A stretch of DNA of 64,000 bases. Origin: Patescibacteria group bacterium. Its GTDB lineage: Bacteria; Patescibacteriota; Minisyncoccia; UBA6257; JACRHW01. The notes under the pieces were generated by a model, which ran no database searches, was not told the origin of the DNA, and worked only from the letters and a program-made list of their open reading frames with translations. Of this stretch, positions 44,936 to 61,440 are shown one piece after another. The position numbers were made by a program, and so were the translations under genes. The stretch spans positions 1,697-65,696 of the forward strand of contig JAGWJP010000003.1 of the NCBI GenBank assembly GCA_028865725.1, given 5' to 3'. The number at the start of each line of letters is the position of its first letter. Positions within the stretch are counted from its first letter, which is position 1.

Positions 44936-45757
44936 ATGGGACAAAAGCTTGGACAACATTTTCTGATCAATCCTTCCGTACTTGCCCGGATTGCCGACGC
45001 GATTCATCCTCATACCAACGAAACGATCATTGAAGTGGGGCCGGGGCACGGGGAACTTACCGACGCGCTCCTTGCACTCAACCCCCATATTCGTCTTATT
45101 CTTATTGAAAAAGATGCGCACCTTGCGAAAAACCTTCGCGATAAGTACAGCACCACATCTATTGAAATCATAACAGGAGATGTTCTTACCCTACTGCCAT
45201 CTCTCCTGCATCCGGCGCCTGATACGCCACACTCTGTAAAAGTGGTGGGTAACATTCCCTACTATCTCACGGGGTTTCTACTGCACCGCCTCCTCGAACT
45301 TGAAGAACCCCCCCACACGATCGTATTCACGATCCAAAAAGAAGTGGCGGAACGTATCGTCGCACATGCACCCCACATGAATCTTCTGGCTGCCTCTGTC
45401 CAATATTTTGGCACGCCGGAACTCTTGTTCACTATTTCCCGACAGGACTTTAATCCGCCGCCGCAGGTAGATTCTGCGACGATTCGCATTACACTACGCA
45501 CACCTATTTCCACACGAGAAGAACGTGCCATATTTTTTCGCGTCGTAAAAGCCGGCTTCAGCCATCCGCGCAAACTTCTTATGAGCAACCTCATCGCCGC
45601 ATTCGCAGTTCCTAAATCCACACTCGAAAATATCTTTACACGCCTCGCGATACGACACGACGCGCGCGGACAACATCTTGACATTGCAACATGGTCTGCC
45701 CTTTCTCGTGATCTTCAGGATTCCTATCCCACCCTCTTCGCATTACCGAAATCTTGA
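44936..45757 (+). CDS. rsmA: 16S rRNA (adenine1518/1519-N6)-dimethyltransferase
   Basis: GQKLGQHFL start, EVGPGHGELT SAM motif; ORF opens 44843 overlapping pcrA. Confidence 0.85.
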   Translation: MGQKLGQHFLINPSVLARIADAIHPHTNETIIEVGPGHGELTDALLALNPHIRLILIEKDAHLAKNLRDKYSTTSIEIITGDVLTLLPSLLHPAPDTPHSVKVVGNIPYYLTGFLLHRLLELEEPPHTIVFTIQKEVAERIVAHAPHMNLLAASVQYFGTPELLFTISRQDFNPPPQVDSATIRITLRTPISTREERAIFFRVVKAGFSHPRKLLMSNLIAAFAVPKSTLENIFTRLAIRHDARGQHLDIATWSALSRDLQDSYPTLFALPKS

Positions 45758-45826
45758 CATATAATCTAGACTAGGTTATATTATTATCGGTTCGTTCAAA
45801 AGAACGGCGGAAAGGGGAAACTCAAC

Positions 45827-46324
45827 ATGAGCAAACGGGAATTCCTTATTCGTTTAGGGATTACTGCGGTTATTCTTGCTCTGCCTGTTTTTTACATCAC
45901 AAGACTTGTACACGACAAGCTGTATGGCAGTGTGGCGAATAATATTGTGTACCATCCGAAAATCGCGCCCTCCGTGATGCGTGAGGGGCATGTTCCCCTG
46001 TTGCCACAGGACAAGGACTTTGAAGTTGCAAACCTTGACCAGTTTTTTGACAGGTCATATGATGTGGTCACTATTCAAAACGACGGATCATTTCTTTTGC
46101 TCTGCGGAAAACAAGGAGATTTATACCGCGTAGGAAAGTACGATCTTCAAAAGTATCAATCAATGAAGTATATCGTCCGCTGCGAAGTGGCTCATCACGA
46201 TATTGTCATTGTGTTTGCGAAACTGCCATGGCCTCTCATTCTTTTGTTTGCCGTCTTTGTAACATTTGTGACGGGAATGATTCTTTATCTTGTGTGGTCC
46301 AAGTATGTGTGGAGTGAGTGGTAA
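45827..46324 (+). CDS. hypothetical membrane protein
   Basis: 165 aa, N- and C-terminal TM helices, AAAGGGGAAA SD. Confidence 0.4.
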   Translation: MSKREFLIRLGITAVILALPVFYITRLVHDKLYGSVANNIVYHPKIAPSVMREGHVPLLPQDKDFEVANLDQFFDRSYDVVTIQNDGSFLLLCGKQGDLYRVGKYDLQKYQSMKYIVRCEVAHHDIVIVFAKLPWPLILLFAVFVTFVTGMILYLVWSKYVWSEW

Positions 46325-46340
46325 ATTTTAAAACCATCGA

Positions 46341-46363
46341 CCGCCTAGAGAGGCGGTTTTTTT
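46341..46363 (+). terminator. rho-independent terminator
   Basis: ccgcct-agag-aggcgg-ttttttt. Confidence 0.65.
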
Positions 46364-46487
46364 GTCACCTCGTAAAAATCCATGAATAAAAGACCGCAAA
46401 GACTCTGCAAGATCCTTGCACAAGATTTCAACCATGTTCACCCCTTATCCACAGTTTTTCCACGGACTTTTACTGGTATAATGAGAG

Positions 46488-47276
46488 GTGATGAAAACTA
46501 TTCCGCAGGGTCTTCACCAAGCACATGGCAAGTATTTTATTTCGCCTACTATAGACGTGCGTTTTGGTATTAAAAAGGGGGTGATGTGGGTGAGCGTTGC
46601 GGGTTTTGTTCTTCTCATATTAAGCTCCTTGAGCACGCTCGCGCACAAAACAAACGATTCCGCATTTACGCTTTTTAATGTATCCCTGGCCCCTCAAAAA
46701 AGAACAACCATGGTGCCGGCATCTGCTTCATTTACGGACGACCTCGGCGCACAAATCAGCAACGGTCTCTCGGAAAAAATTACCACGGCAGGAACGCTGC
46801 AGGATGCGCAATTCACCAATCCCGCAGAGTTCGCTTCGTTTGTACAAAACTATCTAGATACCGACACAAGCGATTACGAGCAATCACTGAAACAAAGTTT
46901 CGCAGAAGGAATATCCGTCCATGCACGCATCGAAAATCACGCAACCGCCGCAGAAAAAAAACACTATATCAATACGGTAACCGCTCTTATGGATCCCTCA
47001 CAATTTCCAGAACGCGATACCACAGCAAACATAAGCAGTGCGGAAACTTTTTACGCACACCTCGCTACGCAGTTAGAACAAACGCCTGTGCCGTCAGAAT
47101 ATTATTTTATCCACTACGAGTTTATACGCGCCGCGAAAATAAAAGCGGCGGGGTATGACGCATTTGTGAACATTGATTCAGACCCCGTAAAAGCGGCGGT
47201 CGTTATGAAAATTTTTGCGGAACTTGATACTCAAACATCCACCGCATATCAGGCATTAACCCACATGACGTCGTAA
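46488..47276 (+). CDS. hypothetical membrane-anchored/secreted protein (first gene of T4SS-like block)
   Basis: TG-n-TATAAT extended -10 at 46471-46482; alternative start MWVSVAGFVLLIL at 46584 gives signal-anchor. Confidence 0.35.
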   Translation: MMKTIPQGLHQAHGKYFISPTIDVRFGIKKGVMWVSVAGFVLLILSSLSTLAHKTNDSAFTLFNVSLAPQKRTTMVPASASFTDDLGAQISNGLSEKITTAGTLQDAQFTNPAEFASFVQNYLDTDTSDYEQSLKQSFAEGISVHARIENHATAAEKKHYINTVTALMDPSQFPERDTTANISSAETFYAHLATQLEQTPVPSEYYFIHYEFIRAAKIKAAGYDAFVNIDSDPVKAAVVMKIFAELDTQTSTAYQALTHMTS

Positions 47277-47297
47277 CCTATTCACCTTATCACTTCA

Positions 47298-49259
47298 ATG
47301 CGTTTTTCTCTTCATAAAAAAGTCCTCATTCTTGTTCTTGTCGTTGCTGTTTTTGTCGCCCAAACAGGAGTAACCCATGCCGCGCTTACCTCGACAATTG
47401 CCCTCTTAAAACAAGCGGGGATTTCTGCGACTCGCATCAACGATGTCTATAATGCATTAAATATTTGCTCTGTAGACGCACTCCATAATTTAGCGGTGGG
47501 GGACGGTCTGTCGAATACCGCCGCAGATGCGGCACTAAAGGGGCTGGGCGTTACGGTGTCAGGCGGATTAGGGGCTCTCATTAATTCTCCCTTCGATCTC
47601 ATCAATGACGCTTTTAATAAAAAAGAGCTTGCACAGGACACAAAAGATGTCATAGTACGTTGCCAGGAAATTACTGCCGACTTGGCTGGAATAACTACTG
47701 ATGCCGGAATATATACCGCCGCCGTTACAGAAAGCAATGTCCATACCGCTGCTGCTTATGCCTCTTGTGGAGCAGCTCTGGATCCATCTTTATGTTGGAC
47801 GACTGTAGAAGCACTACAAGCAGCCGAGAGCACAAAAGTCATAGGGCTTTTAGCCCAACTTAATACCGAACTCGATGCGGTATCAGACAAAATACACAAG
47901 CTTCAAGATCTTGTGAGACAGCAGGCAATAGACAGAAACACCAGAAAAGCCGCTGAGGAGGCAACGAAACAGCGACAGCTCATTCAATTTAACTCCATCC
48001 TTACGAAAATTACGGAGCGCATGAAACTTGCGTTAGTAGAATCGGTGAAAAGTAAGATCCTCGGCATTCTCCAAAACGATGGGTCGCCGCAATGGATCAC
48101 AAACTGGACAACCCGCTATACCAACACCTTCTTCGATACGTACGAACAAAAGTATGTAAATTACAATGCTATTTATAATACACAACACGGATACTATTCA
48201 AGCCGGTTTGCCACGTTTGACGGCTTTATGAGCGCGCTGCAAAGCGACCCGTCCCAGCTTCCCGGTGCCAATCATGCATTTCAAGGGCTTAATGTTCTCA
48301 TCCGCAATAGCGTAGCAGGTAATTCGGCGCAAACTGCAGCCAACGCGCAACAAGCGGAAGACGTTGCGAATAACGGAATGCAGGGCAAAGGTCATTGCGA
48401 AAACGACAACGGAGACAATGCTTCTGCCTCTCACAAGGCACAATCCTCGTCCCAAAACTGTCCACCAGGCCAACATTGGGTTACCGATACTCCAGGTCTT
48501 GCATTCTCCGACATGCTTCAGCAATTTCTTGGCATTGATATCCAGCAGATGCTGAATAACACCATTGAAAACTGGGTCAACCAATTTTTGAACGACAACG
48601 TCATCAATAAATTAAGCGGAAATGGCGGGGGAGGTGGCGGGGGTGGGGGAAGCATTGGGGGTACAGTAACACTTGCGAGTCTTCAGACGGGAGGAGGAAC
48701 TACTGATGTTGCTTCAAGCCAAATTGATTGTTCCGCATTTCCTCCAGGAAGTGCGCAAGATAACTGCCTCCTTGCAAGCGGACTCCACGACCAAGGTGCA
48801 CAAATTACCGAATCGCAGATTGATACCACGTTGAACAGCACTGATGCCAGCGGTAAAACATTTGTTGAACGACTCGCCTCGTCGACAGAGCAGCTTCAAG
48901 CAATTGTAGGAGCCATAAATTCCAATAATGCGTCTTCTACGCTTCTTCTTGCCTCATGTCCTTCGGAGCACGACGCGCTTGCCGCAAATGCCCAGCAAAA
49001 CGCGACACTCCTTGGCGTCGTGCAGCCTCTTATCGACACCTTTACCGCGGCACAAATGCAAATCGCATCTTCTACCGCAACATCATCGCCCACCATCGAT
49101 GTACTCATGACCTACCAAAGCTTTCTGGATGGCATACAAGCAAGCCTTGATACCGCGCAGACCAATATTCCTTCCTATTTTTCGCAAGCCCAGATACTCG
49201 CAGACGATATAAGCAATATCCAAACGAGATGCGCAGCGCCGCAACAAGCTACGCCTTAA
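47298..49259 (+). CDS. large secreted protein with coiled-coil and poly-Gly segment
   Basis: signal peptide MRFSLHKKVLILVLVVAVFVAQTGVTHA; 653 aa; GNGGGGGGGGGS run. Confidence 0.4.
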   Translation: MRFSLHKKVLILVLVVAVFVAQTGVTHAALTSTIALLKQAGISATRINDVYNALNICSVDALHNLAVGDGLSNTAADAALKGLGVTVSGGLGALINSPFDLINDAFNKKELAQDTKDVIVRCQEITADLAGITTDAGIYTAAVTESNVHTAAAYASCGAALDPSLCWTTVEALQAAESTKVIGLLAQLNTELDAVSDKIHKLQDLVRQQAIDRNTRKAAEEATKQRQLIQFNSILTKITERMKLALVESVKSKILGILQNDGSPQWITNWTTRYTNTFFDTYEQKYVNYNAIYNTQHGYYSSRFATFDGFMSALQSDPSQLPGANHAFQGLNVLIRNSVAGNSAQTAANAQQAEDVANNGMQGKGHCENDNGDNASASHKAQSSSQNCPPGQHWVTDTPGLAFSDMLQQFLGIDIQQMLNNTIENWVNQFLNDNVINKLSGNGGGGGGGGGSIGGTVTLASLQTGGGTTDVASSQIDCSAFPPGSAQDNCLLASGLHDQGAQITESQIDTTLNSTDASGKTFVERLASSTEQLQAIVGAINSNNASSTLLLASCPSEHDALAANAQQNATLLGVVQPLIDTFTAAQMQIASSTATSSPTIDVLMTYQSFLDGIQASLDTAQTNIPSYFSQAQILADDISNIQTRCAAPQQATP

Positions 49260-49284
49260 CTTATTCCGAAACGCACCCCGCCCC

Positions 49285-51666
49285 ATGTTCTCATTATCTC
49301 CACAATCCACATTCCGTCGTCTTTCCAAGCTCATTGGGGTACTGCTTGTTGTTGGCATTCTTCTTGTAAGTTCGCCCGCAAATTCATTTGCTCAAGGCGT
49401 TCTTGATAATAATCTTCCCACCCCATCAAGCAGTACCTCCTCTCTGGGTCCGGGGCATATCATAACGACAGACGTAGGGGCAACTACCATTGGATCTTCC
49501 GCCGTCCCCGCAGGGGGAAGTGTCGGTTTGCCTGCAGGCCCCGCGGGAGGAAGTGTTGATAGTACCGCAAATACGCCCTCATCAGCCGTGCCCTGCCCCG
49601 CGAACGGTCCGAGTGTAGTAGGAAAGGGTGCTTTTAGCCTTACAAATATCGGGCTTGACTTGCAAATGGTATTCGGGATGATACTCGTTGTCGGGACAAA
49701 TATATGGCTCTGGGTGCTTTATATGACGGCAACCTACATGAACCTGTTTGCCCAATACAACCCTGTCCACGAGCTTCACGCACTCGTAGAGATCTGGATG
49801 GTGCTGCGCGATTTTGTAAACATCGGGTTTGTAGTAGCCATGATCGTAATCGCGGTCGAAACGATGCTCGGGTTCACCACCTACACTTCACGTAACGCTC
49901 TCTTTACGCTTATTGTGGGCGCACTTCTCATTAACTTTAGCTTGGTGTTTATCAGCTTTTTTCTCGATCTTAATTCAGTGGGCACCTCATTTATGCTCGC
50001 GCAAATTAGCGGCAAAGGTCAATCATTTTCTCAAATCATCTACAATGGCGCGGGCGTTCAGCTCCAAACCACCCCGTCGCCGGGAAGCGGATGTCCCCCC
50101 GTAACTCAAGCCGAGGTAGACCTACAGAATTTAGGCGCATTAATGCACCTTGGAATGAGTGAGTTTACTATCATGATTATTACGCTTGTACTCCTCACTA
50201 TTTTTTGCGCATTTATCTTCCGTCTCGGCCACATCGCCGCGCTTGCGGTGACCTCGCCCTTTATTTGGATTGCGAATATATTTAACAATACAAAAAAAGA
50301 GTGGACGAAGTGGTGGTCTGAGTTCATCAAATGGTGTTTTATGCCCACCATCTCGCTCTTTTATATCTACCTCGCACTCACCGTCTATGCGGGCATAGGC
50401 GCATCGAAAACCGGAGGAATAGGCTTTCTTGACCAAGGAGCCAGCGGCACTGTGAACGCCTTTATGGGCATGGCGCTTACGAGCATCGTCCTCGGAATGC
50501 TTCTCATGACAGCAATTAAAGTAGCGTGGGTAAACTCCGGTGCGTTCGCGGAGCTCATGATGGCCGTCGCTGCCGTCGCCACGAACGGCATGACTGGCGC
50601 GCTTGGAACTGCAGTAAAAGGACTTGCCGGTGGGGCCCTCAAAGGAGCAGGAAAAGCCGCACTGAAGAGTGCGACAGAAGGAAAAGTTATTTCAAAAGTG
50701 CCTCTCATCCGCAGAGGAGTCGCTGGGATTGGTGAATCTGCCCTAGGGACAGGGGAAAAGTTCACAAAAGAGGTTCGGGAAAAGGCAGAAAAACGCGTCA
50801 AAGAAAAATCAAAGGAAAGGCTGGCATTTGATGCTGCCGAAGCACTTCGCACGGGCGCGCAGCAAAATATCATGGGAGCGGTTCAAAAAGCAGAAGCAGG
50901 GTTAGGAATAGGCAAGCTGCTGGCGGAAGATCCTCAGTTCAAGCTTAAAAATAAAGACGAGCTCAAACGCGCACATGATCTCATGAAAGCGGCGGGGAAC
51001 GAGGATGTATTCTTCAAAAATATTGGGAAAATGGATAGGGGTATTGCGAATGACTATGCAAAATCTCTCACAAAAGATGAAGATAGCCAAATGAAACTCG
51101 CGGAAAACCTTGCTACAAGCAAAAAACTCGACTCTGCCACTGCCGACGCAATGAGTATGAATGATCCTGCTACCAATAAACGCCTACAAACTCAATATCC
51201 AGAGGCGTATAAAAAAATTGTGGGTACAAATGTCATGTACGCGGAAAACGTGGTAAGCGCGGCAACCCCTAAAGATAAAGTAGCTGCTGCTTCAGCCAAT
51301 CTTTCGCGAATGAACAAGCAGGAGGCGGGCCAAGTAGATATGGATGACCTTTCGCACAATTCTGAAGGATTGGAAGCACTTACTAAATCACAAAGTCCAC
51401 AAGTCATCACAGAATATATACAACAAGGAAAAGAAAACAGCCAAATAGAAAGGCTCCATGCGCTGCGAGGAAACCTTCTGGGACAAATGGTGGCATCCGG
51501 TTTTCATGGCGACATAAAAACATTCGTAAAAACACATCCCGAGCTCCTGAAGCTGCACAAAACATTGAAAAATGAGAATACCAAGAAACTTATTACCTAT
51601 GCGGCTGGAAAAGCCTCAGCGGCGGGAAAACCTTCGAATAGGGATCTGCGAGAACTTTTACTATAA
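49285..51666 (+). CDS. VirB6/TrbL-like polytopic membrane protein with charged C-terminal extension
   Basis: signal peptide then >=6 TM helices in residues ~120-420, K/E-rich tail; size and topology like Gram-positive VirB6 homologues. Confidence 0.45.
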   Translation: MFSLSPQSTFRRLSKLIGVLLVVGILLVSSPANSFAQGVLDNNLPTPSSSTSSLGPGHIITTDVGATTIGSSAVPAGGSVGLPAGPAGGSVDSTANTPSSAVPCPANGPSVVGKGAFSLTNIGLDLQMVFGMILVVGTNIWLWVLYMTATYMNLFAQYNPVHELHALVEIWMVLRDFVNIGFVVAMIVIAVETMLGFTTYTSRNALFTLIVGALLINFSLVFISFFLDLNSVGTSFMLAQISGKGQSFSQIIYNGAGVQLQTTPSPGSGCPPVTQAEVDLQNLGALMHLGMSEFTIMIITLVLLTIFCAFIFRLGHIAALAVTSPFIWIANIFNNTKKEWTKWWSEFIKWCFMPTISLFYIYLALTVYAGIGASKTGGIGFLDQGASGTVNAFMGMALTSIVLGMLLMTAIKVAWVNSGAFAELMMAVAAVATNGMTGALGTAVKGLAGGALKGAGKAALKSATEGKVISKVPLIRRGVAGIGESALGTGEKFTKEVREKAEKRVKEKSKERLAFDAAEALRTGAQQNIMGAVQKAEAGLGIGKLLAEDPQFKLKNKDELKRAHDLMKAAGNEDVFFKNIGKMDRGIANDYAKSLTKDEDSQMKLAENLATSKKLDSATADAMSMNDPATNKRLQTQYPEAYKKIVGTNVMYAENVVSAATPKDKVAAASANLSRMNKQEAGQVDMDDLSHNSEGLEALTKSQSPQVITEYIQQGKENSQIERLHALRGNLLGQMVASGFHGDIKTFVKTHPELLKLHKTLKNENTKKLITYAAGKASAAGKPSNRDLRELLL

Positions 51667-51668
51667 AA

Positions 51669-53510
51669 ATGAACACAAGCATAACTTCACAACAGTACTT
51701 TGAACGGCTCGATATGCTCCCCGAAGACTTGAGAGACGCGTATTTTAGTCCGGACACTGAATCCATTATTGAAAAGGCAACGGAGGTAAACAACCTCACG
51801 CCCGAACAACTCAGTCTTGTCAAAGAAAATTCAGGATGGGTACTTCTTGGCTTTCTTCACCCCGATCATCTCGCAGAGATTTTAATACAGGACGCGGGAG
51901 TAAACCAAGCAACCGCTGTGATGATCGGACGGGAACTCAACCGCGATCTGTTTTTGCCGCACAAGAAATCTTTAACAGAAGTTCTCGTTACCTACCCACC
52001 CAAAAAAGAGTGGTTTGCAAATCTAGAAGGTAGAAAACAGAATATAGAAAATAACGAGGCCACACTCCCGAAAAATGATTCCATCATCCAGCGGCAAGCA
52101 CCCGCGCTGACACCGCCTACTCCAACGGCACCGCGTCCTATCGCGCCTCTCTCGCATCGGCTTACCCAGCCCACCCCTGTATTGCGTTCCGCGCAGCCTA
52201 TCACGCCGCCTCCCGCATCGACGCTTCCACCCCCTCCATCAACCTCGGCTCCTACCGCTTTGCACACGATCACCCCGCCACCTCTTGCCTCCGTAAGCCC
52301 CTCGGGGCTTCGCCCCGCGCTTCTTGAGGTCCAACCCCATGAAACAGATCAGACAACGACGGGTGTGCATAATCCCGTACCGCACGAAGAGGCAGAAGTA
52401 CGCACCGGCATGCCGTCTTCTGTGGCACCACAAAAACCACTCGCACAACCTTCCCTTGCTACACCAAGAAGAGTAGAACCCCAGCCAGATGCACGCCCAC
52501 ATACCACAGAACCACAAACCCCATGGACTCCGGCCCCGCTCCACTTCGATGCGCCTTCTGCCACCACTCCGCGGAGCGGATCTCCTGTACCCCCAAAAAC
52601 CTCTCCCTCTGTTCCCTTAACGCCACAGGCACCTCATACCATCTTTAAATACGGACCCCCCTCTCCACCACCCATTGTCGCAATTCCAAAAAACCAGCCG
52701 AATCCTTCCGTGCCACCCCTGCCCACACCTCGGCCTACCCCCGCAAGCCAACCTTCATCACCCCGTCCTTCTGCGCCGGCTCCTTTGGCACAATCCCGTC
52801 CCTTCACGCCCCCCTCAAAACCGGCAACGCCTCCCGCTCGCCCGAAACCCACAATGAATGGCGCTCCAGCATCACCCGTATCAAAAAATATTCCTGCCCG
52901 CGACACCGAGCCCTTGAATAACCCATCCGCCAATCCACGCATCGTCCAGCCTGCCCCAAAAGCACCGGAGCAAACTCAAAAACCGACCATGCCGAGCACG
53001 CCGTCGCCCTTGTCCCAGAACACCATGCCCCCACTTGCAACAAACACCCCGCCAGCGAACCCTTCCCCCAAGAATCATGCGATACCCGAAAAACAAGGAA
53101 ACAAACCCGAGGCTCAACTCATGGACTTATATCTCAAAAAACACGTCGGCGACGCGCAGACAGACTACCGAAAACCGACCGCGGAAAACAAGCAAACAGG
53201 AAGCGGGCAGATAGCAAATCGACGAGCGACCACCGGCTCGCAAACGGACGACAAACTACTGACCACAGAGAGCAAATCCCCGAAAAATGACAATGTCGCC
53301 CAGCGGCAGGCACCGAACGGGGATGGCGTTAAATCGGAGCAAGTGCAAAAAAATAATTCAATAAATGCAGCACGAGTCCCTTCGGCAAACTCAAAGCAGG
53401 CTTCCTCAACCACGCTCACCGATCCTCAGGTAATAGACCTTGAGGAATATAGTAAAACTCACAGAGGAAATGTGTTAAACTTAAAACAGGACGAAGAAAA
53501 TAGTAAATAG
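51669..53510 (+). CDS. protein with globular N-domain and ~450-aa Pro/Thr/Ser-rich low-complexity region
   Basis: 613 aa; PxxP-rich repeats. Confidence 0.4.
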   Translation: MNTSITSQQYFERLDMLPEDLRDAYFSPDTESIIEKATEVNNLTPEQLSLVKENSGWVLLGFLHPDHLAEILIQDAGVNQATAVMIGRELNRDLFLPHKKSLTEVLVTYPPKKEWFANLEGRKQNIENNEATLPKNDSIIQRQAPALTPPTPTAPRPIAPLSHRLTQPTPVLRSAQPITPPPASTLPPPPSTSAPTALHTITPPPLASVSPSGLRPALLEVQPHETDQTTTGVHNPVPHEEAEVRTGMPSSVAPQKPLAQPSLATPRRVEPQPDARPHTTEPQTPWTPAPLHFDAPSATTPRSGSPVPPKTSPSVPLTPQAPHTIFKYGPPSPPPIVAIPKNQPNPSVPPLPTPRPTPASQPSSPRPSAPAPLAQSRPFTPPSKPATPPARPKPTMNGAPASPVSKNIPARDTEPLNNPSANPRIVQPAPKAPEQTQKPTMPSTPSPLSQNTMPPLATNTPPANPSPKNHAIPEKQGNKPEAQLMDLYLKKHVGDAQTDYRKPTAENKQTGSGQIANRRATTGSQTDDKLLTTESKSPKNDNVAQRQAPNGDGVKSEQVQKNNSINAARVPSANSKQASSTTLTDPQVIDLEEYSKTHRGNVLNLKQDEENSK

Positions 53511-53514
53511 AAAA
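53496..53514. repeat. inverted copy of the AT-rich cluster motif (gaaaatagtaaatagaaaac)
   Basis: reverse complement gttttctatttactattttc ~ gttttctaatttctactttc at 54063. Confidence 0.5.
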
Positions 53515-53547
53515 CAAAAAATAGGTGGTGGTAACTACAAACTCATA

Positions 53548-53581
53548 TTATTCTAAATTCTATTTTCTACTTTCTAACACT
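53548..53581 (+). repeat. AT-rich cluster motif, forward copy (ttctaaattctattttctactttctaacact) immediately before ATG 53582
   Basis: shared core TTCTAWTTTCTACWTTCTAA with 54063, 54807, 56693. Confidence 0.55.
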
Positions 53582-53989
53582 ATGCAGGCAATGGTTCCAC
53601 AATTTATTGATGTAGAAGATCGCATCACCCCGCTTCTCACGATTAAGCAGTTTTTTTATTTAATAGCGGCGGGCGCGTGTTCGGCGATCCTCTACCCATT
53701 TTTGCAAACGATGCCATGGCTCGTACTTACTGCCCTTATATTAGGACTTGGAGCCGCATTCGGCTTTTTAAAAATTAACGGGCGCCCCTTTTCCGTAATG
53801 CTCTATATCGCTGCTAAATTTTTCTGGAACCCGCATCTTTATATGTTCCAGAAAAACATCACACGCGTGGAAATTTCCACGCCACAAGAACCTGTTCATG
53901 CGGAGAAAAAACGGGAACCTGAACGTGTTTCTTCGGAACGTCTCGAACAAATTTCACGCCTCCTCGATTCTAAAGGGGATTATAAGTAA
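53582..53989 (+). CDS. VirB3/PrgI-like small membrane protein
   Basis: ~135 aa, two adjacent TM helices after a short N-terminal segment, directly upstream of VirB4; ORF opens 53525 through the repeat. Confidence 0.45.
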   Translation: MQAMVPQFIDVEDRITPLLTIKQFFYLIAAGACSAILYPFLQTMPWLVLTALILGLGAAFGFLKINGRPFSVMLYIAAKFFWNPHLYMFQKNITRVEISTPQEPVHAEKKREPERVSSERLEQISRLLDSKGDYK

Positions 53990-54011
53990 GAAAATAGAAT
54001 GTAGAAATTAC
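53990..54011. repeat. inverted copy of cluster motif (gaaaatagaatgtagaaattac)
   Basis: gtagaaatta can pair with taatttctac at 54069-54078 (10-bp stem, ~57-nt loop). Confidence 0.5.
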
Positions 54012-54060
54012 AAAAGAGAACGCACAAAAACACTAACAGTTCTCCAAACAATTATAAACT

Positions 54061-54090
54061 CTGTTTTCTAATTTCTACTTTCTAAAAAAT
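54061..54090 (+). repeat. forward copy of cluster motif (ctgttttctaatttctactttctaaaaaat) before ATG 54091
   Basis: see above. Confidence 0.55.
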
Positions 54091-54735
54091 ATGGCTCAAG
54101 AATCTCAACCTACTCAACGCATCATCGATATTGAAACGATCCGAGATGGAACCGTTATCCTTAAAAACGGCGGGCTCCGCGCCGTAGTTATGGTACGCGG
54201 CATTAATGTTTATCTGAAGACGGAAAACGAACAAAATTCAATCATTAGCGCATTCCAGGAATTTTTGAACGGATTGGATTTTCCTATTGAAATCATCATT
54301 CATTCCCGCCGTCTCAATATCTTGGGGTATCTAGAAAAAATAAACGCGCGCAAAGAACAAGAAACTAATGACCTTCTCCGCACTCAAATAGATGAGTATC
54401 TTGCCTACATACGGGACCTCACCTCATCATCCACGATCATGTCAAAACGTTTTTACGTAGTTGTTTCGTACGATATGATTGCGCTTCCCGCACGCAAAGG
54501 AGGATTATTCCCACGTGCATCTCAAAACACATCGGCACTTCCTACTGATTTTGAAACTCAAAAATATCAGCTTGATCAACGTACTGATGTTATTATAGGG
54601 GGGCTTCAGCGCACGGGAGTCAATGCAGCACGCCTCGGTACCGAAGAGCTCGTCGAACTGTTTTATAATCTCTATAATCCTCAAGAAATAGAAAAGGGCG
54701 GCACCGACATTGCAAAACGACTGTCGTTAATATGA
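54091..54735 (+). CDS. VirB4-family protein, N-terminal fragment
   Basis: IIDIETIRDGTVILKNGGLRAVVMVRGINVYLKTENEQNSIISAFQEFLNGLDFPIEIIIHSRR matches the conserved N-terminal signature of Gram-positive VirB4 homologues (Tn916 Orf16/TrsE type). Confidence 0.55.
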   Translation: MAQESQPTQRIIDIETIRDGTVILKNGGLRAVVMVRGINVYLKTENEQNSIISAFQEFLNGLDFPIEIIIHSRRLNILGYLEKINARKEQETNDLLRTQIDEYLAYIRDLTSSSTIMSKRFYVVVSYDMIALPARKGGLFPRASQNTSALPTDFETQKYQLDQRTDVIIGGLQRTGVNAARLGTEELVELFYNLYNPQEIEKGGTDIAKRLSLI

Positions 54736-54806
54736 CAGTACCTAGAAAGAAGAAAACAGAAAATAAATAACATGAATACATCCCATTCACATTCTCTATT
54801 GTATAG

Positions 54807-54844
54807 TTCTATTTTCTACATTCTATTTTCTACATTCTAATACT
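54807..54844 (+). repeat. tandem duplication of cluster motif (2 x ttctattttctaca + ttctaatact) before ATG 54845
   Basis: 14-nt unit repeated head-to-tail at 54807-54820 and 54821-54834. Confidence 0.6.
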
Positions 54845-56650
54845 ATGGCATTTAATTTTCCTTTCTTTTCAAAGAAAAAAACAGAAGACCAAGACACATT
54901 TGGCCCTCTTCCTTCGCAGTATAAATTTGCAACGGATACGCTCCAAGACCTCTTGGCACCTCCGGGAATAGAAGCAACCAATGATTACTTGAAAATTGGA
55001 TCACTGTATACCAAAACGTTATTCCTGTTTTCATATCCCAATGTTCTTTCAAGCGGATGGTTTTCTTCGGTCATTAATATCGAAAAAAGCTTTGATATCG
55101 CCATTTACCTCGACCCCATGGACACCGCTACCGCGCTAAAAAATTTGAGAAAAAAAGTGGCGCAAATTGAAAGCCAATTGATGGAACAGCAGGAAAAGGG
55201 CCTCGTACGCGACCCTCTTCTCGAAGCATCTTACAAAAATATCGAAGGATTGCGCGATAGTCTTCAACAAGCAGAAGAAAAATTATTTAACCTTGGTATT
55301 TATATCACGATCTACGCTACGGACACATCCGAACTCCAGAAGTACGAATCCGAAGTAGCAGGATTGCTTGAGGGACGGATGATTTATATTAAGCCAACTC
55401 TCTTTGAGCATCTTGAAGGATTCCAAACTACTCTCCCGCTCGTATCCGACAAAGTACAGGTTTATACCCCTTTCGATACTGTTCCCATTTCGACACTATT
55501 TCCATTTGACTCCGCAGAACTTACCTCTGATGACGGGATTTTATACGGGGTCAACATGCACAATAACAGTCTCATTATTTTTGACCGCTTTTCTCTTGAA
55601 AACGCGAACATGGTTATATTTGCAAAGTCGGGATCCGGAAAATCTTTCTTCACTAAGCTGGAAATCCTCCGCAGTCTTATGATGGGAACCGACATTCTTA
55701 TCATTGACCCCGAAAATGAATACCAAGCTCTTTCCGAGGCAATCGGAGGAGGATATTTCCGTATTTCACTCTCTTCAGAACACCGTATCAACCCCTTTGA
55801 TCTTCCTCCCATTCCTCCCGACGAATCTCCATCCGATGTTTTACGTTCTCACATCCTCATGCTTACAGGACTTATTAAAATCATGGTGGGGGAGATTACT
55901 CCTACGGAGGAGGCCCTCATCGATCAAGCGCTTCTCGAAACATATGCCTCTCGAGAAATCGTGCCCGATTCTAACTTTACAGGAAAAACACCGCCCCTGC
56001 TCTCCGATCTCCAGACGGTTCTTGAAAGCATAGAAGGGGGGGCGGATCTTGCAAAGCGTCTCGAAAAATATACAAAAGGAACCTATGCGGGCTTTTTAAA
56101 CAGTCCGTCCAATGTACAAATCAGAAACCGTCTCACGGTATTTAACATCCGTGACCTCGAAGAAGAACTCCGTCCTATCGCCATGTATATGATCCTAAAC
56201 TTTATGTGGAGCCTGATTCGCGCGGAATTTAGAAAGCGCCTTCTTATCGTTGACGAGGCATGGGTACTCATGAAATACGAGGATGGGGCAAACTTTTTGT
56301 TTGGTATGGCAAAACGAGGCAGGAAGTATTTCCTTGGCATCACGACCATTACGCAGGATATTGACGACTTTCTGCGTTCGCCCTATGGACGCCCCATTGT
56401 CACAAACTCCTCGTTACAATTATTGCTCAAACAATCTCCCGCAACGATTGATATTATAGGAACCACATTCAACCTTACGGAAGCAGAAAAGATGATCCTC
56501 CTCGAAGCAAATGTGGGGGAGGGGATCTTTTTTGCGGGATTACGCCACGCCGCCATTCATGTCATCGCCTCTTACACCGAAGGTAAGCTTGCTTCTACAA
56601 AACCACAGGAATTACTTGCAAGAATGGAAGGAAAAACAGAAACGCAGTAA
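54845..56650 (+). CDS. VirB4-family ATPase, C-terminal part (ATPase domain)
   Basis: DYLKIGSLYTKTLFLFSYP N-domain continuation; Walker A AKSGSGKSF; Walker B LLIVDEAW; 601 aa. Confidence 0.8.
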   Translation: MAFNFPFFSKKKTEDQDTFGPLPSQYKFATDTLQDLLAPPGIEATNDYLKIGSLYTKTLFLFSYPNVLSSGWFSSVINIEKSFDIAIYLDPMDTATALKNLRKKVAQIESQLMEQQEKGLVRDPLLEASYKNIEGLRDSLQQAEEKLFNLGIYITIYATDTSELQKYESEVAGLLEGRMIYIKPTLFEHLEGFQTTLPLVSDKVQVYTPFDTVPISTLFPFDSAELTSDDGILYGVNMHNNSLIIFDRFSLENANMVIFAKSGSGKSFFTKLEILRSLMMGTDILIIDPENEYQALSEAIGGGYFRISLSSEHRINPFDLPPIPPDESPSDVLRSHILMLTGLIKIMVGEITPTEEALIDQALLETYASREIVPDSNFTGKTPPLLSDLQTVLESIEGGADLAKRLEKYTKGTYAGFLNSPSNVQIRNRLTVFNIRDLEEELRPIAMYMILNFMWSLIRAEFRKRLLIVDEAWVLMKYEDGANFLFGMAKRGRKYFLGITTITQDIDDFLRSPYGRPIVTNSSLQLLLKQSPATIDIIGTTFNLTEAEKMILLEANVGEGIFFAGLRHAAIHVIASYTEGKLASTKPQELLARMEGKTETQ

Positions 56651-56711
56651 GTAGAAATAGGAAAGGAGATGCGGAGTCTTAAATTTTGTTTACTACTTTC
56701 TATTTTCTCGT
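56651..56711. repeat. inverted (gtagaaatagga) and forward (ctttctattttctcgt) cluster motif copies flanking intergenic region
   Basis: same motif family as 53990/54061. Confidence 0.45.
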
Positions 56712-57413
56712 ATGTCTCGTGGTATAATAACAGTAATGCGTCAATTCCTACTTTTTGTATTTGCCGTGTTGTTTGCCGCCATACCCGTTTCATATGCGGC
56801 GAGTTCTCATTTTCTTACATGGAAAACAAATACCTATGTTCCTCAGGAGTTTTGGGGCAAACCGCTTCCTATAAAAGGATCGGCCGTCACGCTCAGCGTG
56901 CAATCCCTCGACCCTCAAGAATCGTTTTCAAACATACCGATAACATGGTATGTCGACAACATCATAATTGCACAAGGTAATGGCCTCTCCACCACCCCCT
57001 ATACGGTAACAGAAGGTCCCGGACTGTATGTCATCAAAGCATTTTTGCGCCTTCCTGACGGTACTCCTGAAACCCTCACCGCTCCCCTCAAAGTAGTCGC
57101 TCCGTTCGTGTCGCTTGTAGAACAACATGCGGCTACTGTGAATCATCAGATCTCTACCGCAAACACCGAGCTTCGCTTTCACGCCATTCCACTCTTTTAC
57201 AACACATCGTCCCTCCTTGGCCTTGCTTTCACGTGGGGAGTGGGGGATGTAACAAGCGAAGACCAAAATCCTCAAAATCCCGATTACGCATCCATTACTT
57301 TTCCAGAAGGAGCATCGTCCGGATCGCGCGGTACCGTCACAGTTAGCGTGACAAATATTGCGCATCCTGATGAACATGCTTCACAGTATACTACTGTAAT
57401 CACTCCCCAATAA
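56712..57413 (+). CDS. secreted hypothetical protein
   Basis: signal peptide MRQFLLFVFAVLFAAIPVSYAASS (alt start 56736); 233 aa. Confidence 0.4.
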   Translation: MSRGIITVMRQFLLFVFAVLFAAIPVSYAASSHFLTWKTNTYVPQEFWGKPLPIKGSAVTLSVQSLDPQESFSNIPITWYVDNIIIAQGNGLSTTPYTVTEGPGLYVIKAFLRLPDGTPETLTAPLKVVAPFVSLVEQHAATVNHQISTANTELRFHAIPLFYNTSSLLGLAFTWGVGDVTSEDQNPQNPDYASITFPEGASSGSRGTVTVSVTNIAHPDEHASQYTTVITPQ

Positions 57414-57427
57414 TACACCGGCTACCT

Positions 57428-58243
57428 ATGAAACGACTCTCTTTCGCCATTCTATTACTACTTGTCACCATGTTTCTTGGTGCGGGAATATTCTCGCTCG
57501 TATCCGCTGCTCCGCCGCCTGGTGATGTGACGCTCTCAGCGGGTCTCCCGGGGACTGGAAACACGCAAGAAATTAAACCCGGGGAAACCATACACGTCCA
57601 AACACTTGACCAACTTACAAATTATCTAAGCACGCTTATTCGTTTTCTGTTCGGACTTGCCGCGGTACTGGCTGTCGTCTCTATCGCATGGGCAGGTCTC
57701 CAATATATGGCAGCGGGGGCAAGTATTGGTAATATGCGCGCCGCAACCGATCGTATTCGCAACGTGATCTTTGGACTCGTTCTGCTCCTTACCGGGTTTT
57801 TAATCCTCCGCACCATCAATCCCAAAATTCTCAGCGGTCTTCCTGGAGAAGAAAAACTCCCTTTTCTCCCGATCATCAACGCGCCACAAGTTCAAACACA
57901 GGAAGTAACAATGAAAGTAATTAACCAAACAAAAGCAATCAAAAATACTAATGTCGACACTTATGTCCAACAGCGATTAACCGACAATGGCGGAAACCAA
58001 ACAAAAGCAATCAGCGCAACAACACAAATACTAAGTGAAATACGAGTGAGGATAGCTAAAGAGAACGAGGAGTTGAACAACTTAAAAAACCAAATCAATA
58101 CAACATCTGATCCAACCACCAAAGCTCAATTGGAATCATCTTATGGAGAATCCAGAGGAAATTTGCAACGAGATCAGGCAAGCTTGGCTCGAGAGCAAAA
58201 GACACTTCAAGTATTACAATCACAGTCAAACACGACACCTTAG
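57428..58243 (+). CDS. VirB2/TrbC-type pilin-like protein
   Basis: signal peptide, then two hydrophobic helices (LSTLIRFLFGLAAVLAVVSIAWAGLQYMAAGAS ; VIFGLVLLLTGFLILRTI) separated by a short basic loop, plus Q/N/T-rich tail. Confidence 0.45.
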   Translation: MKRLSFAILLLLVTMFLGAGIFSLVSAAPPPGDVTLSAGLPGTGNTQEIKPGETIHVQTLDQLTNYLSTLIRFLFGLAAVLAVVSIAWAGLQYMAAGASIGNMRAATDRIRNVIFGLVLLLTGFLILRTINPKILSGLPGEEKLPFLPIINAPQVQTQEVTMKVINQTKAIKNTNVDTYVQQRLTDNGGNQTKAISATTQILSEIRVRIAKENEELNNLKNQINTTSDPTTKAQLESSYGESRGNLQRDQASLAREQKTLQVLQSQSNTTP

Positions 58244-58255
58244 CAAAACAAGTAC

Positions 58256-59488
58256 ATGTCTCAGCGGCAAAAAATACTTATCATTATTGTCGGAATCATT
58301 GTCCTTATGGGATTTTTGGGGTTGCTTGTTTTCTTTTTTGGGAAAAAATCCGCATCTCCTCCTCCAGGAGCAAACACGGCAAATAGCGATATATCGACAA
58401 TACCATCGTTGACCCCTGAAAATATAACCGCGTCTTCATCGTTTACACAGATCACGGAAAACCCCGTCCCTCTCGCATATTACGATCAAGGAATACTCTA
58501 CTCCATCGATACGAATGGCGCATTGTGGAAAAAAGACTTGAGTGCTCCTACGACCGTCCAAACACAAGGTGTCTCTTCCTCCACCATTGCGGGGGAGGTA
58601 ATTCCTCCCGCTCCTACGAATGAAGCGCAACGTCTCGGCGGATTCACTGTCAACAATCCAAACACGCTACTCGTCTCTCCAAACGGAAATACCATTCTTA
58701 TTGGAGAGGGGACAGTAAACGGACAAAAAACATTTTCACTCGTCTCCCAAAACGGAGATCCCATAGTCACACTACCTCAAGGAGTGGAAGAAGCGGCGTT
58801 CTTAACAAATGCCACGCTTGCGTATTATAAAGAAACGATCTCAGGGGCTGGGATCTATACCTATACCATTACCGATAAAAAAGAGCGTCTGATACGAACC
58901 CTCAATCCACTTGATATACATCTCTACCGTATCGATGACACGACCCTTCTCCTCGCAGAAAAACCTACTCACGGTATTACCACGGCCAGCTTTCTTCTCA
59001 ATATGAAAACAGGGGTGCTCTCGAATTATTTTTCAGGGTTTCTTGGCACCTCATTATCTCCGCTAGGAAATCAAAGAGTCCTTGCTCTAACCGGAGATCC
59101 AATCGACGCAAATGGAAATAGCTCCTACCATCTCTCCTTGCTCAACAAGGAGGGGTCTGTCACCCATACGCTTACTATTATCACCATGCCGGAAAAATGT
59201 GTTGCCGACGCGCAGGGCATCTACTTGTATTGCGCGATCCCTTTGGAATGGACCTCGAATATGCCAGACTTGTCCTTACCAGACGACTACTATGCACAAA
59301 ATGCAGGATTTTCTGAGACTATTTTACGTATAAACCTACAAACCTTTTTTACTGAAAACATCAACCAGACCCCCACACTCTATGATGCAGTACACCTCTC
59401 GTTAAGCGCCGACAACACGACCCTCTATTTCTATGACAGAAGAACAAATAATGAATTTTCCCTCTTGTTGCCCCCTCCAAAAATCTGA
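58256..59488 (+). CDS. membrane-anchored extracytoplasmic protein (beta-rich)
   Basis: N-terminal TM ILIIIVGIIVLMGFLGLLVFFF, 380-aa beta-strand-rich ectodomain. Confidence 0.4.
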   Translation: MSQRQKILIIIVGIIVLMGFLGLLVFFFGKKSASPPPGANTANSDISTIPSLTPENITASSSFTQITENPVPLAYYDQGILYSIDTNGALWKKDLSAPTTVQTQGVSSSTIAGEVIPPAPTNEAQRLGGFTVNNPNTLLVSPNGNTILIGEGTVNGQKTFSLVSQNGDPIVTLPQGVEEAAFLTNATLAYYKETISGAGIYTYTITDKKERLIRTLNPLDIHLYRIDDTTLLLAEKPTHGITTASFLLNMKTGVLSNYFSGFLGTSLSPLGNQRVLALTGDPIDANGNSSYHLSLLNKEGSVTHTLTIITMPEKCVADAQGIYLYCAIPLEWTSNMPDLSLPDDYYAQNAGFSETILRINLQTFFTENINQTPTLYDAVHLSLSADNTTLYFYDRRTNNEFSLLLPPPKI

Positions 59489-59590: not shown

Positions 59591-60034
59591 TTAAGGATTA
59601 TAAGGCCTAATTGTTACATAACGATTATCACCCTCTCCCTTACTCTCCGTAATAATATCAGGATGTACGGCAAGTTCAAGGTGAATAATGCGCCGTTCAA
59701 AGGGTTTCATGGGAGGAAGTCTAACTTCTTTTTTGGTCGTCACTACTTGTCGGGCTATTTTTCTAATATATTCCTTCAATTTTCCTTCCCGTTCACTCCT
59801 GTAATTATTAATATCAATAGAAAATACAGTGTCAATATTACTGTGTTTTGCGAGAAGTTTTAGTACTCTCTCGATATCAGAAATGTTTTCTCCATTTTTT
59901 CCAATCATAAACCCCGCGTCGTCAAGAGATATCTGTATTTTTGCAGCAGTACCCAGAAAGACCGCACTTACCTGTGGGTTCTGGATTCCCATATTATGTA
60001 AAAACTCTTCGATGAGTGTTTGGAGCTGTCCCAT
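59591..60034 (-). CDS. jag: Jag/KhpB-like RNA-binding protein (KH + R3H)
   Basis: IGKNGENI KH GxxG loop and C-terminal R3H (RRIIHLEL); adjacent to yidC. Confidence 0.8.
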   Translation of the reverse strand: MGQLQTLIEEFLHNMGIQNPQVSAVFLGTAAKIQISLDDAGFMIGKNGENISDIERVLKLLAKHSNIDTVFSIDINNYRSEREGKLKEYIRKIARQVVTTKKEVRLPPMKPFERRIIHLELAVHPDIITESKGEGDNRYVTIRPYNP

Positions 60035-60055
60035 ACCTCACAAATTTCTTGTTCC

Positions 60056-60772
60056 TTATATTTGTTTTATCTCCGTTTCAAGAGATTCTGACTGAATAAT
60101 ACGTTTTGTTACTACGTATTCACCAATGGAGAATACCGTACTTGCGATCCAGTACAATCCTACCACTGCAGGTAGTTTTACCAAAATAATCAACGTTAGT
60201 AAAGGAAACACAAAAATCATAGCCGACATCATTTGGGCCGCTTCTCCTCCCGCAGTATTCGGCATAAAGAATTTTGACTGTATAAACTGAAGAAGCGCGG
60301 CAACAAGTGCCACTTCAATAAGAGGTGTGTTTACATCGAAAAGACCTAAAAAGGTATGATGGACAGGAAGAGTAATATGAATAAATGAATAGAGGGAGGC
60401 CTGAACATTAGAGGAAAATGCCTTCATACTGATACGATAGAGTGTAATAAGAAGCACTACTTGTACAATGATAAAAAGAAAACCTGAAAAAGGATTAATT
60501 TTGTGCCTTTCATACAAGTGCATCATAGCCTTCACCTGGGCTTCTTTGTCGTCTTTATGCTCTTTTTGTATTTTTGCCATCTCAGGCTGAAGCTTGCTTA
60601 GTACCATCTGGTAGCGCATATTTTTGTGAAAAATAGGAAAAATAGCCAAGCGCACAACAATAGTAAACAAGATAATAGCAATGCCCGCATCTGAAAAAGC
60701 AGCGGTGTGGTAAATAAAAAATAAAAGATTGGTAAGCGGTCTTACTATAATTTCATTATAGAGAAAAACCAT
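60056..60772 (-). CDS. yidC: membrane protein insertase YidC (short form)
   Basis: GIAIILFTIVVRLAIFPIFHKNMRYQMVLSKLQPEMAKIQ conserved TM2-loop region of YidC/Oxa1; 238 aa. Confidence 0.85.
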   Translation of the reverse strand: MVFLYNEIIVRPLTNLLFFIYHTAAFSDAGIAIILFTIVVRLAIFPIFHKNMRYQMVLSKLQPEMAKIQKEHKDDKEAQVKAMMHLYERHKINPFSGFLFIIVQVVLLITLYRISMKAFSSNVQASLYSFIHITLPVHHTFLGLFDVNTPLIEVALVAALLQFIQSKFFMPNTAGGEAAQMMSAMIFVFPLLTLIILVKLPAVVGLYWIASTVFSIGEYVVTKRIIQSESLETEIKQI

Positions 60773-60787
60773 AACATTATTTCTTGG

Positions 60788-61281: not shown

Positions 61282-61440
61282 AAAAAATAATACAGTTCAG
61301 TTCATTATTATGTGTATTTGCAGTATATCTTTTTCTCTGTTTTTTTTCAATCCCACTGCCAAAACAACATCGTTATACGAATAAGCCATTGGCATATAAG
61401 CCTGGGGGGGTTTTGTTTCTTAAATTTTCGAAAAAAATAT

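Follow-up and report, generated by a model that had tools for sequence, protein, structure and literature searches.

A ten-gene cluster at positions 46488-59488 of the DNA analyzed here, a 64-kb stretch of a Patescibacteria genome that we call the window, encodes a type IV secretion system (T4SS). The locus matches the published Patescibacteria-clade T4SS, which is derived from the FATA class of mating-pair-formation systems (MPF-FATA), and it is an ordinary member of the kind described between 2023 and 2025. Judging from its genes and their arrangement, we consider it highly probable that this is a Paceibacteria-type, ten-gene Patescibacteria T4SS, likely to act as a contact-dependent conduit or attachment device directed toward a host cell. 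Patescibacteria, ultrasmall and host-dependent cells, account for much of bacterial diversity, and no earlier T4SS had been shown to be essential to its own bearer. An initial annotation of the window, made without database searches, had described a Gram-positive-style T4SS or pilus-like module lacking a recognizable coupling protein; the novelty it implied is overstated, as both the system and the reasoning are already in print.

Results

We named the ten open reading frames (ORFs) of the cluster g1 to g9, with g6 comprising g6a and g6b. All ten lie on the + strand with spacers of 2-109 nt, as expected from the initial annotation, which had spoken of ten co-directional genes encoding mostly secreted or membrane proteins. 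Localization was assessed with a Kyte-Doolittle scan, and N termini were read by eye for cleavable signal peptides. Such signal peptides were read in g2, g3, g7, and g8; g1 and g9 have N-terminal anchors, g5 has a two-helix hairpin, and g3 has at least six transmembrane (TM) segments, while the scan gave no hydrophobic segment in g4, g6a, or g6b; 7 of the 10 products thus carry a signal peptide or TM segments. Because no terminator-like site was found on the + strand within 46359-59488, g1 to g9 probably form one operon.

The motor of the system is g6b (54845-56650), a VirB4 ATPase of the CD1110 family. It matched Pfam P-loop_TraG at 96 bits, with further matches to AAA_10 and DUF87, and it scored 358 bits against the NCBIfam equivalog conju_CD1110 (cutoff, 325), aligning with model positions 183-728 only. 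Other NCBIfam models gave lower scores, namely 275 bits for the VirB4 of mycoplasma integrative and conjugative elements (ICEs), 185 for TraC-F, and 120 for VirB4_CagE, a ranking that supports assigning the window's T4SS to the predicted Gram-positive (MPF-FATA/CD1110) type, here with a pilin. Both nucleotide-binding motifs are intact, Walker A (AKSGSGKS) spanning aa 260-267 (nt 55622-55645) and Walker B (LLIVDEAW) spanning aa 466-473 (nt 56240-56263).

The N-terminal part of the model is covered by the preceding gene, g6a (54091-54735), which aligned with conju_CD1110 positions 2-120, such that g6a and g6b jointly span a full VirB4 by this NCBIfam model. g6a also matched the mycoplasma ICE VirB4 model (VirB4_plasma; E = 8.8e-14, positions 100-234) and, weakly, the TrsD/TraD model NF041427 (E = 3e-7; 30 bits, under the cutoff of 200), and its relatives carry PF26593 TraC-like matches. 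We read g6a as a TrsD-like gene, i.e., a VirB4 N-terminal domain encoded separately. The initial annotation had drawn one VirB4 gene across 54091-56650, with Walker motifs and a Gram-positive N-terminal signature. The ATPase and its motifs stand, as g6b, but the single gene does not; since g6a matches the VirB4 N-region as an ORF of its own, the signature is present but sits in a separate gene and not within the ATPase gene.

An interrupted single-gene VirB4, explained by a frameshift or by UGA recoding, was considered and ruled out. g6a ends in TGA, the 109-nt spacer that follows holds stops in all three frames, and g6b is in a different frame; because an in-frame TAA follows the TGA of g6a, UGA recoding would not join the two genes. 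The split is also conserved. Related loci, 83 in all, were taken from species-representative genomes and from assemblies, and comparison was by tblastn and iterated hidden Markov models (HMMs); a g6a-type gene stood directly upstream of VirB4 in 79-81 of the 83. The NCBI annotation likewise numbers the genes separately, MDE1970742 being g2 and MDE1970747 the VirB4, five genes apart. A search with the VirB4 returned at least 8000 homologues, and all scored ones passed E 1e-10. Among the best 120 of these 8000, every taxonomically named one is labeled Patescibacteria or Candidate Phyla Radiation, identities are 59-87%, and nearly all are 565-605 aa long, so that they too would be without the N-domain. 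Plasmid VirB4s reached no more than 36% identity to g6b (about 30-36%), with the best plasmid matches coming from Bacillota and Actinomycetota.

The TrsD-like, PrgI, VirB6, and pilin genes all lie within 6 kb of virB4. The pilin, g8 (57428-58243), is VirB2/TrbC-like and the sole pilin copy in the window. It scored 31.5 bits against Pfam T4SS_pilin (cutoff, 26.6), with TrbC/VirB2 as the second match and a weak match to the NCBIfam mycoplasma Mbov_0395 pilin-like model. Its signal peptide is followed by two hydrophobic helices, with the pilin domain at aa 61-122, and by a hydrophilic C-terminal extension of ~140 aa, in keeping with the two-helix, signal-peptide-bearing pilin noted originally.

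The large polytopic protein g3 (49285-51666) is best described as an extended VirB6/TrbL-like protein, consisting of a signal peptide, a Ser/Pro/Gly linker, the TM segments (aa 119-411), and a hydrophilic C-terminal tail of ~380 aa. The single sequence had no Pfam match, and a full-length family profile was discarded because coiled-coil matches from the C-terminal tail dominated it. When the profile was trimmed to the membrane domain (34 sequences), the top PDB match was TrwI/VirB6 of R388 (7o3v_F; E = 1.1e-4), in an alignment that spans the conserved R..L..L...PLAWL.W..P.....F.KWW region of the family. Pfam TrbL was matched directly by 3 of the 34 family members, and the family occurs in 61 loci, Saccharibacteria included.

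The small protein g5 (53582-53989) is PrgI/VirB3-like and forms the two-helix hairpin mentioned above; its ORF opens at a GTG at 53525, and the ATG at 53582 is the likelier start. An HMM built from the related loci, 73 of which carry the family, recovered g5 at E = 3.5e-37, and family members carry precomputed PF12666 matches. The profile searches therefore agree with the initial annotation for all four components it had named, with VirB4 and the pilin passing model cutoffs and PrgI and VirB6 being recognized at the level of their families.

We then asked what the locus lacks by scanning every window ORF of at least 120 aa against Pfam. We found no VirD4/TraG/TcpA coupling protein, no relaxase, and no VirB11, VirB9, or VirB10 among them, and the VirB7/VirB9/VirB10 outer-membrane core had no Pfam or NCBIfam match in window ORFs. 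The absences recorded in the initial annotation (VirD4-type ATPase, relaxase, VirB11, and VirB10) thus extend over the full 64 kb, and neither a relaxase nor a VirD4, whose presence nearby it had named as the mark of an ordinary ICE, was found there. For the type IV coupling protein (T4CP), the absence applies to these 64 kb, and bona fide conjugative relatives carry a relaxase and VirD4 within ~5 kb of VirB4.

The cluster occupies a fixed place on the chromosome. It lies between ksgA, 0.7 kb upstream, and jag-yidC-rnpA and dnaA, with rnpA 1.3 kb and dnaA 2 kb downstream; the Pfam-identified genes jag/khpB (-), yidC (-), rnpA (-), and dnaA (+) at 59591-62914 form the same flank in 38-51 related loci. 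In ~35 Paceibacteria-type loci (from Jorgensen-, Harrison-, Lipton-, and Nealsonbacteria and others), the gene order is that of the window: comM, M23 (-), [uvrD], ksgA, g1, a slot protein, VirB6, g4, PrgI, TrsD, VirB4, g7, pilin, g9, jag (-), yidC (-), [rnpA], and dnaA. Both the synteny comparison and the look at the replication origin (oriC) that the initial annotation had proposed point the same way, as the order from ksgA to dnaA recurs in ~35 of the 83 loci compared and places the block beside dnaA in each of these Paceibacteria-type genomes. Saccharibacteria loci carry the core alone, with an opposite-strand array of ~8 pilin genes followed by VirB6, PrgI, TrsD, and VirB4. Because position and order are fixed across many genera, and mobility genes are missing, we take the cluster to be a vertically inherited core locus and not an ICE.

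The remaining genes, several of which had been set aside as unassigned and possibly lineage-specific parts of the machine, turned out to be conserved lineage-specific families. The first gene of the conserved cluster, g1 (46488-47276), probably starts at M33 (46584) and encodes a signal-anchored protein with one TM segment and an ectodomain that appears helical by sequence; it had no Pfam or PDB match, and its family is present in 18 related loci, always directly after ksgA. The proline-rich g4 (51669-53510; 17.6% proline overall) is cytoplasmic, having neither signal peptide nor TM segment, and combines a conserved N-domain of ~105 aa, a long disordered linker, and a short conserved C-terminal motif. 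Its family was found in 29 loci between VirB6 and PrgI, and a search of 1.84 billion cluster representatives gave 1058 relatives of the N-domain, in proteins of 100-640 aa that almost always carry it at the extreme N terminus. No Pfam domain was present in 10 sampled relatives of the N-domain, and its profile had no PDB match.

The slot between g1 and VirB6 is filled by a protein of 490-700 aa in all Paceibacteria-type loci examined except L018, L033, and L007. In the window this is g2 (47298-49259), a large, mostly helical secreted protein with a signal peptide, a Gly run, and conserved Cys. Its sole close homologue among the related loci is in L006, and this pair was linked to a 14-member slot family by hhalign (85% probability, E = 6e-6, 206 columns), with common GxPxF/WxTNW and C..TTPG motifs. 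g2 had no Pfam match, its weak PDB matches were coiled-coil noise, and a word-indexed homologue search with a 16-sequence profile returned 4 proteins. An AlphaFold2 model built from 4 sequences (pLDDT 52, pTM 0.30) was unreliable and was not used.

Two families follow the motor. g7 (56712-57413) is a secreted protein of ~200 aa with a signal peptide and what appears to be an Ig-like (Rib/PKD-type) beta-sandwich. Its family occurs in 35 loci, always directly after VirB4; a few members match Rib, BiPBP_C, or PKD, and the PDB matches of the profile are weak and Ig-like, so we assign the fold with modest confidence. g9 (58256-59488), whose family is present in 36 loci, is predicted to be a membrane-anchored extracellular beta-propeller. 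The AlphaFold2 model (9-sequence alignment; pLDDT 81, pTM 0.77) shows a TM helix at residues 3-29, a short linker, and an all-beta domain, and a Foldseek search of the PDB with it returned WD40, TolB, tricorn, and prolyl-oligopeptidase propellers at E values of ~1e-9 to 4e-10; the sequence profile gave weak TolB and WD matches. Elsewhere in the window, a 402-aa ORF at 37057-38265 (+) with no Pfam match gave a marginal match (E = 0.0025) to the g9 family HMM. We also considered a VirB8-like identity for g1 or g9 and rejected it, g1 being helical-looking without a PDB match and g9 a beta-propeller; no NTF2-like candidate was found.

Conservation is uneven across the cluster. In the closest relatives (L003-L006), identity is 83-87% for VirB4, 70-79% for TrsD, and 54-58% for PrgI, and it is 30-46% for g1, g2, g3, g4, g7, g8, and g9. 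The exported and membrane parts would therefore evolve far faster than the motor, a pattern that fits host-facing surfaces.

Four spacers of the core contain long, imperfect hairpins (within 53494-56711, + strand) built from TAGAAnn heptads in the 5' arm and TTCTAnn heptads in the 3' arm. They lie between g4 and prgI (53494-53581), prgI and trsD (53980-54090), trsD and virB4 (54742-54844), and virB4 and g7 (56646-56711), and in each the 3' arm ends 3-8 nt ahead of the downstream ATG. The repeat families were named D1, D2, and I1-I9. An 18-mer form of the motif occurs 8 times in the 64 kb, always within 52024-54839, versus 0.14 expected, and the heptad motif is also found inside g4 (52023-52051). 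Folding z-scores were -2.9, -2.1, -0.6, and -1.3, and conservation among relatives is partial and variable: the close relative L004 has the same heptad hairpin ahead of trsD, L003 and L004 have hairpins of other sequence at the same positions, and L006 has no spacers at all. The hairpins could act in mRNA processing or stability, could occlude start regions, or could be small palindromic insertions. Rfam and ARAGORN scans gave no match inside the cluster. A scan for consensus promoters and terminators gave counts no higher than the shuffled expectation, the sole convincing terminator being the one after g0, the gene that precedes the cluster.

That gene, g0 (45827-46324), lies between ksgA and the cluster and encodes a 165-aa membrane protein with two TM segments. 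A near-consensus promoter-like site of its own (TTGACA-17-TATATT) is at 45754-45782, and a strong terminator is at 46339-46358. As no homologue was found in any of the 83 related loci, g0 looks like a lineage-specific insertion at the cluster boundary.

Further upstream lie a NYN-domain protein, PNPase, comM/yifB, a LysM-M23 endopeptidase, uvrD/pcrA, and ksgA. The NYN-domain protein, whose family carries a putative RNase annotation, and PNPase occupy 33627-36283, 10-13 kb upstream of the cluster, and comM/yifB, LysM-M23, and uvrD/pcrA are directly upstream (38929-44931); synteny of comM, M23, and ksgA with the T4SS was seen in 11-18 related loci. This neighborhood may be relevant to hypotheses of nucleic-acid import, or it may simply consist of origin-proximal housekeeping genes. 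The LysM-M23 peptidoglycan endopeptidase (41612-42805, -; Pfam Peptidase_M23 and LysM) lies ~4 kb upstream of the cluster and has a counterpart upstream of the cluster in 14 related loci. It is a candidate VirB1-like wall-remodeling partner, and M23/LysM VirB1-like genes have been reported near virB4 in Paceibacteria (PMC12102498).

Several other features of the window were recorded. The 13-kb operon is transcribed toward jag/yidC/rnpA (-) and dnaA (+), an orientation kept in related loci, and an oriC between rnpA and dnaA would place it head-on to replication; GC skew on the + strand is negative over nearly the whole window and positive only past ~62 kb. A tyrosine recombinase at 31672-32622 (-), with Phage_integrase and SAM-like N-domains, adjoins tRNA-Lys(ctt) (region 31538-32622); it is unrelated to the T4SS block and may represent XerC/D or one end of a small integrated element. 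Two more large ORFs are a 738-aa ORF without Pfam assignment at 16277-18493 (-) and a 630-aa DUF11/Ig-like protein at 1486-3378 (+) that may be a surface protein.

Discussion

Our analysis suggests a system that is probably central to host exploitation by these cells. By homology to the R388 and Agrobacterium T4SSs, whose architecture is summarized in PMC12857230, VirB4, its N-domain supplied in trans by the TrsD-like g6a, would dock on PrgI/VirB3 and the extended VirB6 in a single membrane and would power extraction of pilin from that membrane into a polymer tube or pilus across the wall. After signal-peptide cleavage, the two pilin helices would place the 140-aa C-terminal extension outside the cell. 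g1, g2, g7, and g9 may form or decorate the extracellular part, as candidates for wall-spanning, tip, or host-binding components; g4 could be a cytoplasmic adaptor or a substrate; and the LysM-M23 enzyme might open the wall in a VirB1-like manner. Such a contact-dependent conduit would serve an epibiotic lifestyle, by import of host macromolecules or by effector export. It would fit the essential role of T4SS and pilins in the epibiotic growth of Southlakia (PMC10633639; PMC12857230) and the tubes, read as possible T4SS pili, seen where a parasite meets its host (bioRxiv 10.64898/2026.06.21.733656). The DNA uptake or attachment role put forward in the initial annotation is likewise conjectural.

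Several points weigh against this reading. The Patescibacteria-clade placement of g6b is suggested by its nearest matches. g5 taken alone scores 24 bits against Pfam PrgI (E = 5.9e-5), under the gathering cutoff of 27, and the description of g3 as an extended VirB6 depends on a profile match at E 1e-4 and on 3 of 34 relatives; both assignments appear weak for the single sequence and firm at the family level. Among the products of the cluster we recognized no VirB8-like or VirB1-like protein, and location and fold are what suggest roles for g1, g2, g4, g7, and g9. Finally, VirD4-like genes occur elsewhere in most Patescibacteria genomes (PMC12102498), so a T4CP may be encoded outside the window, in which case the system could still transfer DNA.

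We weighed other explanations for the cluster. It is somewhat unlikely that the machine is a protein-effector translocator, or purely an adhesion pilus, that manipulates or holds the host. Some T4SSs without a T4CP do secrete proteins (Ptl and Brucella VirB), Wang et al. suggest that proteins are exported or that the system has another capacity, the exported parts diverge rapidly, and g4, with a disordered body, a conserved C-terminal motif, and no signal peptide, has traits often seen in T4SS substrates. However, no effector was identified, the conserved position of g4 is that of a structural part, and adhesion in Saccharibacteria is already supplied by type IV pili.

A conduit that imports host RNA, nucleotides, or cytoplasmic material through a VirB2-type tube piercing the host envelope seems unlikely. 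The idea draws on a 2026 preprint (bioRxiv 10.64898/2026.06.21.733656) that reports host RNA uptake in a cultivated member of the phylum, together with tubes, read as possible T4SS pili, at the parasite-host interface, and that finds PNPase and VirB4 both to be monophyletic and ancient; in the window, PNPase and the NYN-domain gene lie upstream of the cluster at the distance given above. Yet the preprint does not demonstrate the link between tubes and T4SS, no known T4SS imports RNA, and the PNPase linkage in the window is loose. A more elaborate version, which we regard as doubtful, combines the split VirB4, the extended VirB6, and the VirB2-like polymer into a host-penetrating import tube for host RNA or DNA, with the hairpins setting subunit stoichiometry post-transcriptionally; g9, g7, and g1 would guide the tube across the wall and to the host, the hypervariable g2 would be a host-specificity or tip factor, and g4 would be a receptor replacing the coupling protein.

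That the cluster is a DNA-uptake machine, similar to ComB of Helicobacter pylori or the archaeal Ced system and supplying host or environmental DNA for nucleotides or recombination, is distinctly improbable. ComB and the Ced system of Sulfolobales resemble the window's T4SS in being T4SS-derived, in having no relaxase, and in their proposed direction of import; no relaxase or T4CP is nearby here either, comM and the uvrD/pcrA helicase are just upstream in conserved synteny, and import of DNA or other macromolecules has been hypothesized in the literature. The window differs, however, in having no ComB-type VirB7-10 genes and in scoring 49.9 bits against a cutoff of 700 for CedB and 12.9 against 600 for CedD. 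Moreover, Southlakia can dispense with competence, which relies on comEC and type IV pili, but not with its T4SS.

An ordinary ICE or ICE remnant, whose T4SS exports the element's own DNA, is barely credible: the VirB4, TrsD, and PrgI genes are homologous to conjugative plasmid genes of Bacillota and Actinomycetota, but there is no relaxase or T4CP in the 64 kb, no integrase or att site flanks the block, the only tyrosine recombinase is 14 kb upstream, past PNPase, comM, and other housekeeping genes, the GC content is similar to that of the flanks, the position from ksgA to jag/yidC/dnaA is the same in many genera, and VirB4 relatedness tracks host relatedness (PMC12102498). Because coupling protein and relaxase are missing and the position beside oriC is fixed, the locus most likely does not conjugate its own element. 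We thus retain the contact-dependent conduit or attachment device directed at a host cell as the preferred reading.

Comparison with known systems

The Gram-negative MPF-T systems (Agrobacterium VirB and R388 Trw) share with the window homology of VirB2, VirB3, VirB4, and VirB6 and a presumed mode of pilus biogenesis in which VirB4 and VirB6 act on the pilin. The window differs from them in having a single membrane and a split VirB4, with no VirB5, VirB7-VirB10, or VirB11 and no recognizable VirB8.

The MPF-FATA conjugative systems of monoderms (pGO1/pIP501 TrsC-TrsD-TrsE; CD1110/CTn2) share with the window the CD1110 VirB4, the PrgI-(TrsD)-VirB4 order, a large polytopic VirB6-like protein, and an associated cell-wall hydrolase. 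Unlike the window, they reside on mobile replicons, usually have no VirB2-like pilin, and carry a VirD4-type T4CP, a relaxase and MobC, a topoisomerase, and sortase or adhesins by VirB4. Plasmid pSXP-169_2 of Clostridium perfringens, for example, encodes MobC, a relaxase, a VirD4-like CD1115 protein, PrgI, a full-length VirB4, an SLT hydrolase, topoisomerase III, and a sortase, with the transfer genes no more than a few kb from VirB4. An Embleya plasmid, whose transfer genes are equally close to VirB4, encodes PrgI, VirB4, a T4CP, and a replication-relaxation protein.

Two Bacillota-annotated records hold pilin-bearing clusters without a T4CP, an 898-kb non-mobilizable Pontibacillus sp. 'plasmid' (NZ_CP062975.1) and a 1.08-Mb Priestia megaterium record (NZ_CP045273.1). 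The Pontibacillus cluster (L084, 344340-370067; locus coordinates 7462-17015) has two pilin-like genes, a VirB6-like gene, PrgI, a TrsD-like gene, VirB4, and a 1050-aa M23 peptidase, in the Saccharibacteria order, with no relaxase or T4CP within 12 kb; the Priestia cluster, around 685-689 kb, is similar. Their five core families match the Patescibacteria HMMs at E values of 1e-11 to 5e-51. Unlike the window, they have flagellar genes adjacent, a VirB4 that is 35% identical, and no members of the g1, g4, g7, and g9 families. Because of these look-alikes, a pilin-bearing, T4CP-less monoderm T4SS with split VirB4 appears not to be confined to Patescibacteria, and they are relevant to whether the transferred system had its pilin from the start or co-opted it later.

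The closest counterparts are the Patescibacteria-clade systems themselves. The T4SS of Southlakia epibionticum (SEML1_0006-0019) is closest in composition to Gram-positive conjugative T4SSs, has essential pilins, and has no recognizable coupling protein or relaxase (Wang et al. 2023, PMC10633639); T4SS and pilins are essential for its epibiotic growth, and comEC is not (PMC10633639; PMC12857230). Quinonero-Coronel et al. (2025, PMC12102498) placed 2,425 VirB4s in a monophyletic Patescibacteria clade inside MPF-FATA. In their survey, TrsD accompanies VirB4 more often than any other component, PrgI, VirB6, and VirB2-like pilins are encoded close to virB4, relaxases are seldom present, and most T4CP homologues are distant from virB4. 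In Paceibacteria and Microgenomatia, the neighboring genes include dnaA, dnaN, rnpA, ksgA, and rpmH, and a role in import is hypothesized. A 2025 FEMS review restates these findings (PMC12857230).

The window has the same parts, namely VirB4, a separate TrsD, PrgI/VirB3, VirB6, and a VirB2-like pilin. Outer-membrane parts are missing, the cluster encodes neither a relaxase nor a T4CP, and its location is likewise chromosomal, by dnaA, ksgA, and rnpA. Its single pilin carries a long C-terminal extension, in contrast to the arrays of 6-8 short pilins in Saccharibacteria, and its M23/LysM gene is ~12 kb upstream of virB4 on the other strand, with no peptidase or lysozyme directly downstream of virB4. 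The accessory families g1, slot, g4, g7, and g9 are not characterized in the accounts of Patescibacteria T4SSs compared here. What we add to those accounts, as leads only, are the predicted folds and localization of these accessory proteins, the fast-evolving slot protein, the heptad hairpins, and the Bacillota-annotated look-alike. The window is thus no new kind of system; it is a clean ten-gene Paceibacteria-type example beside the origin, in which the hypothetical genes resolve into conserved families with predictable localization and, for g9, a confident fold.

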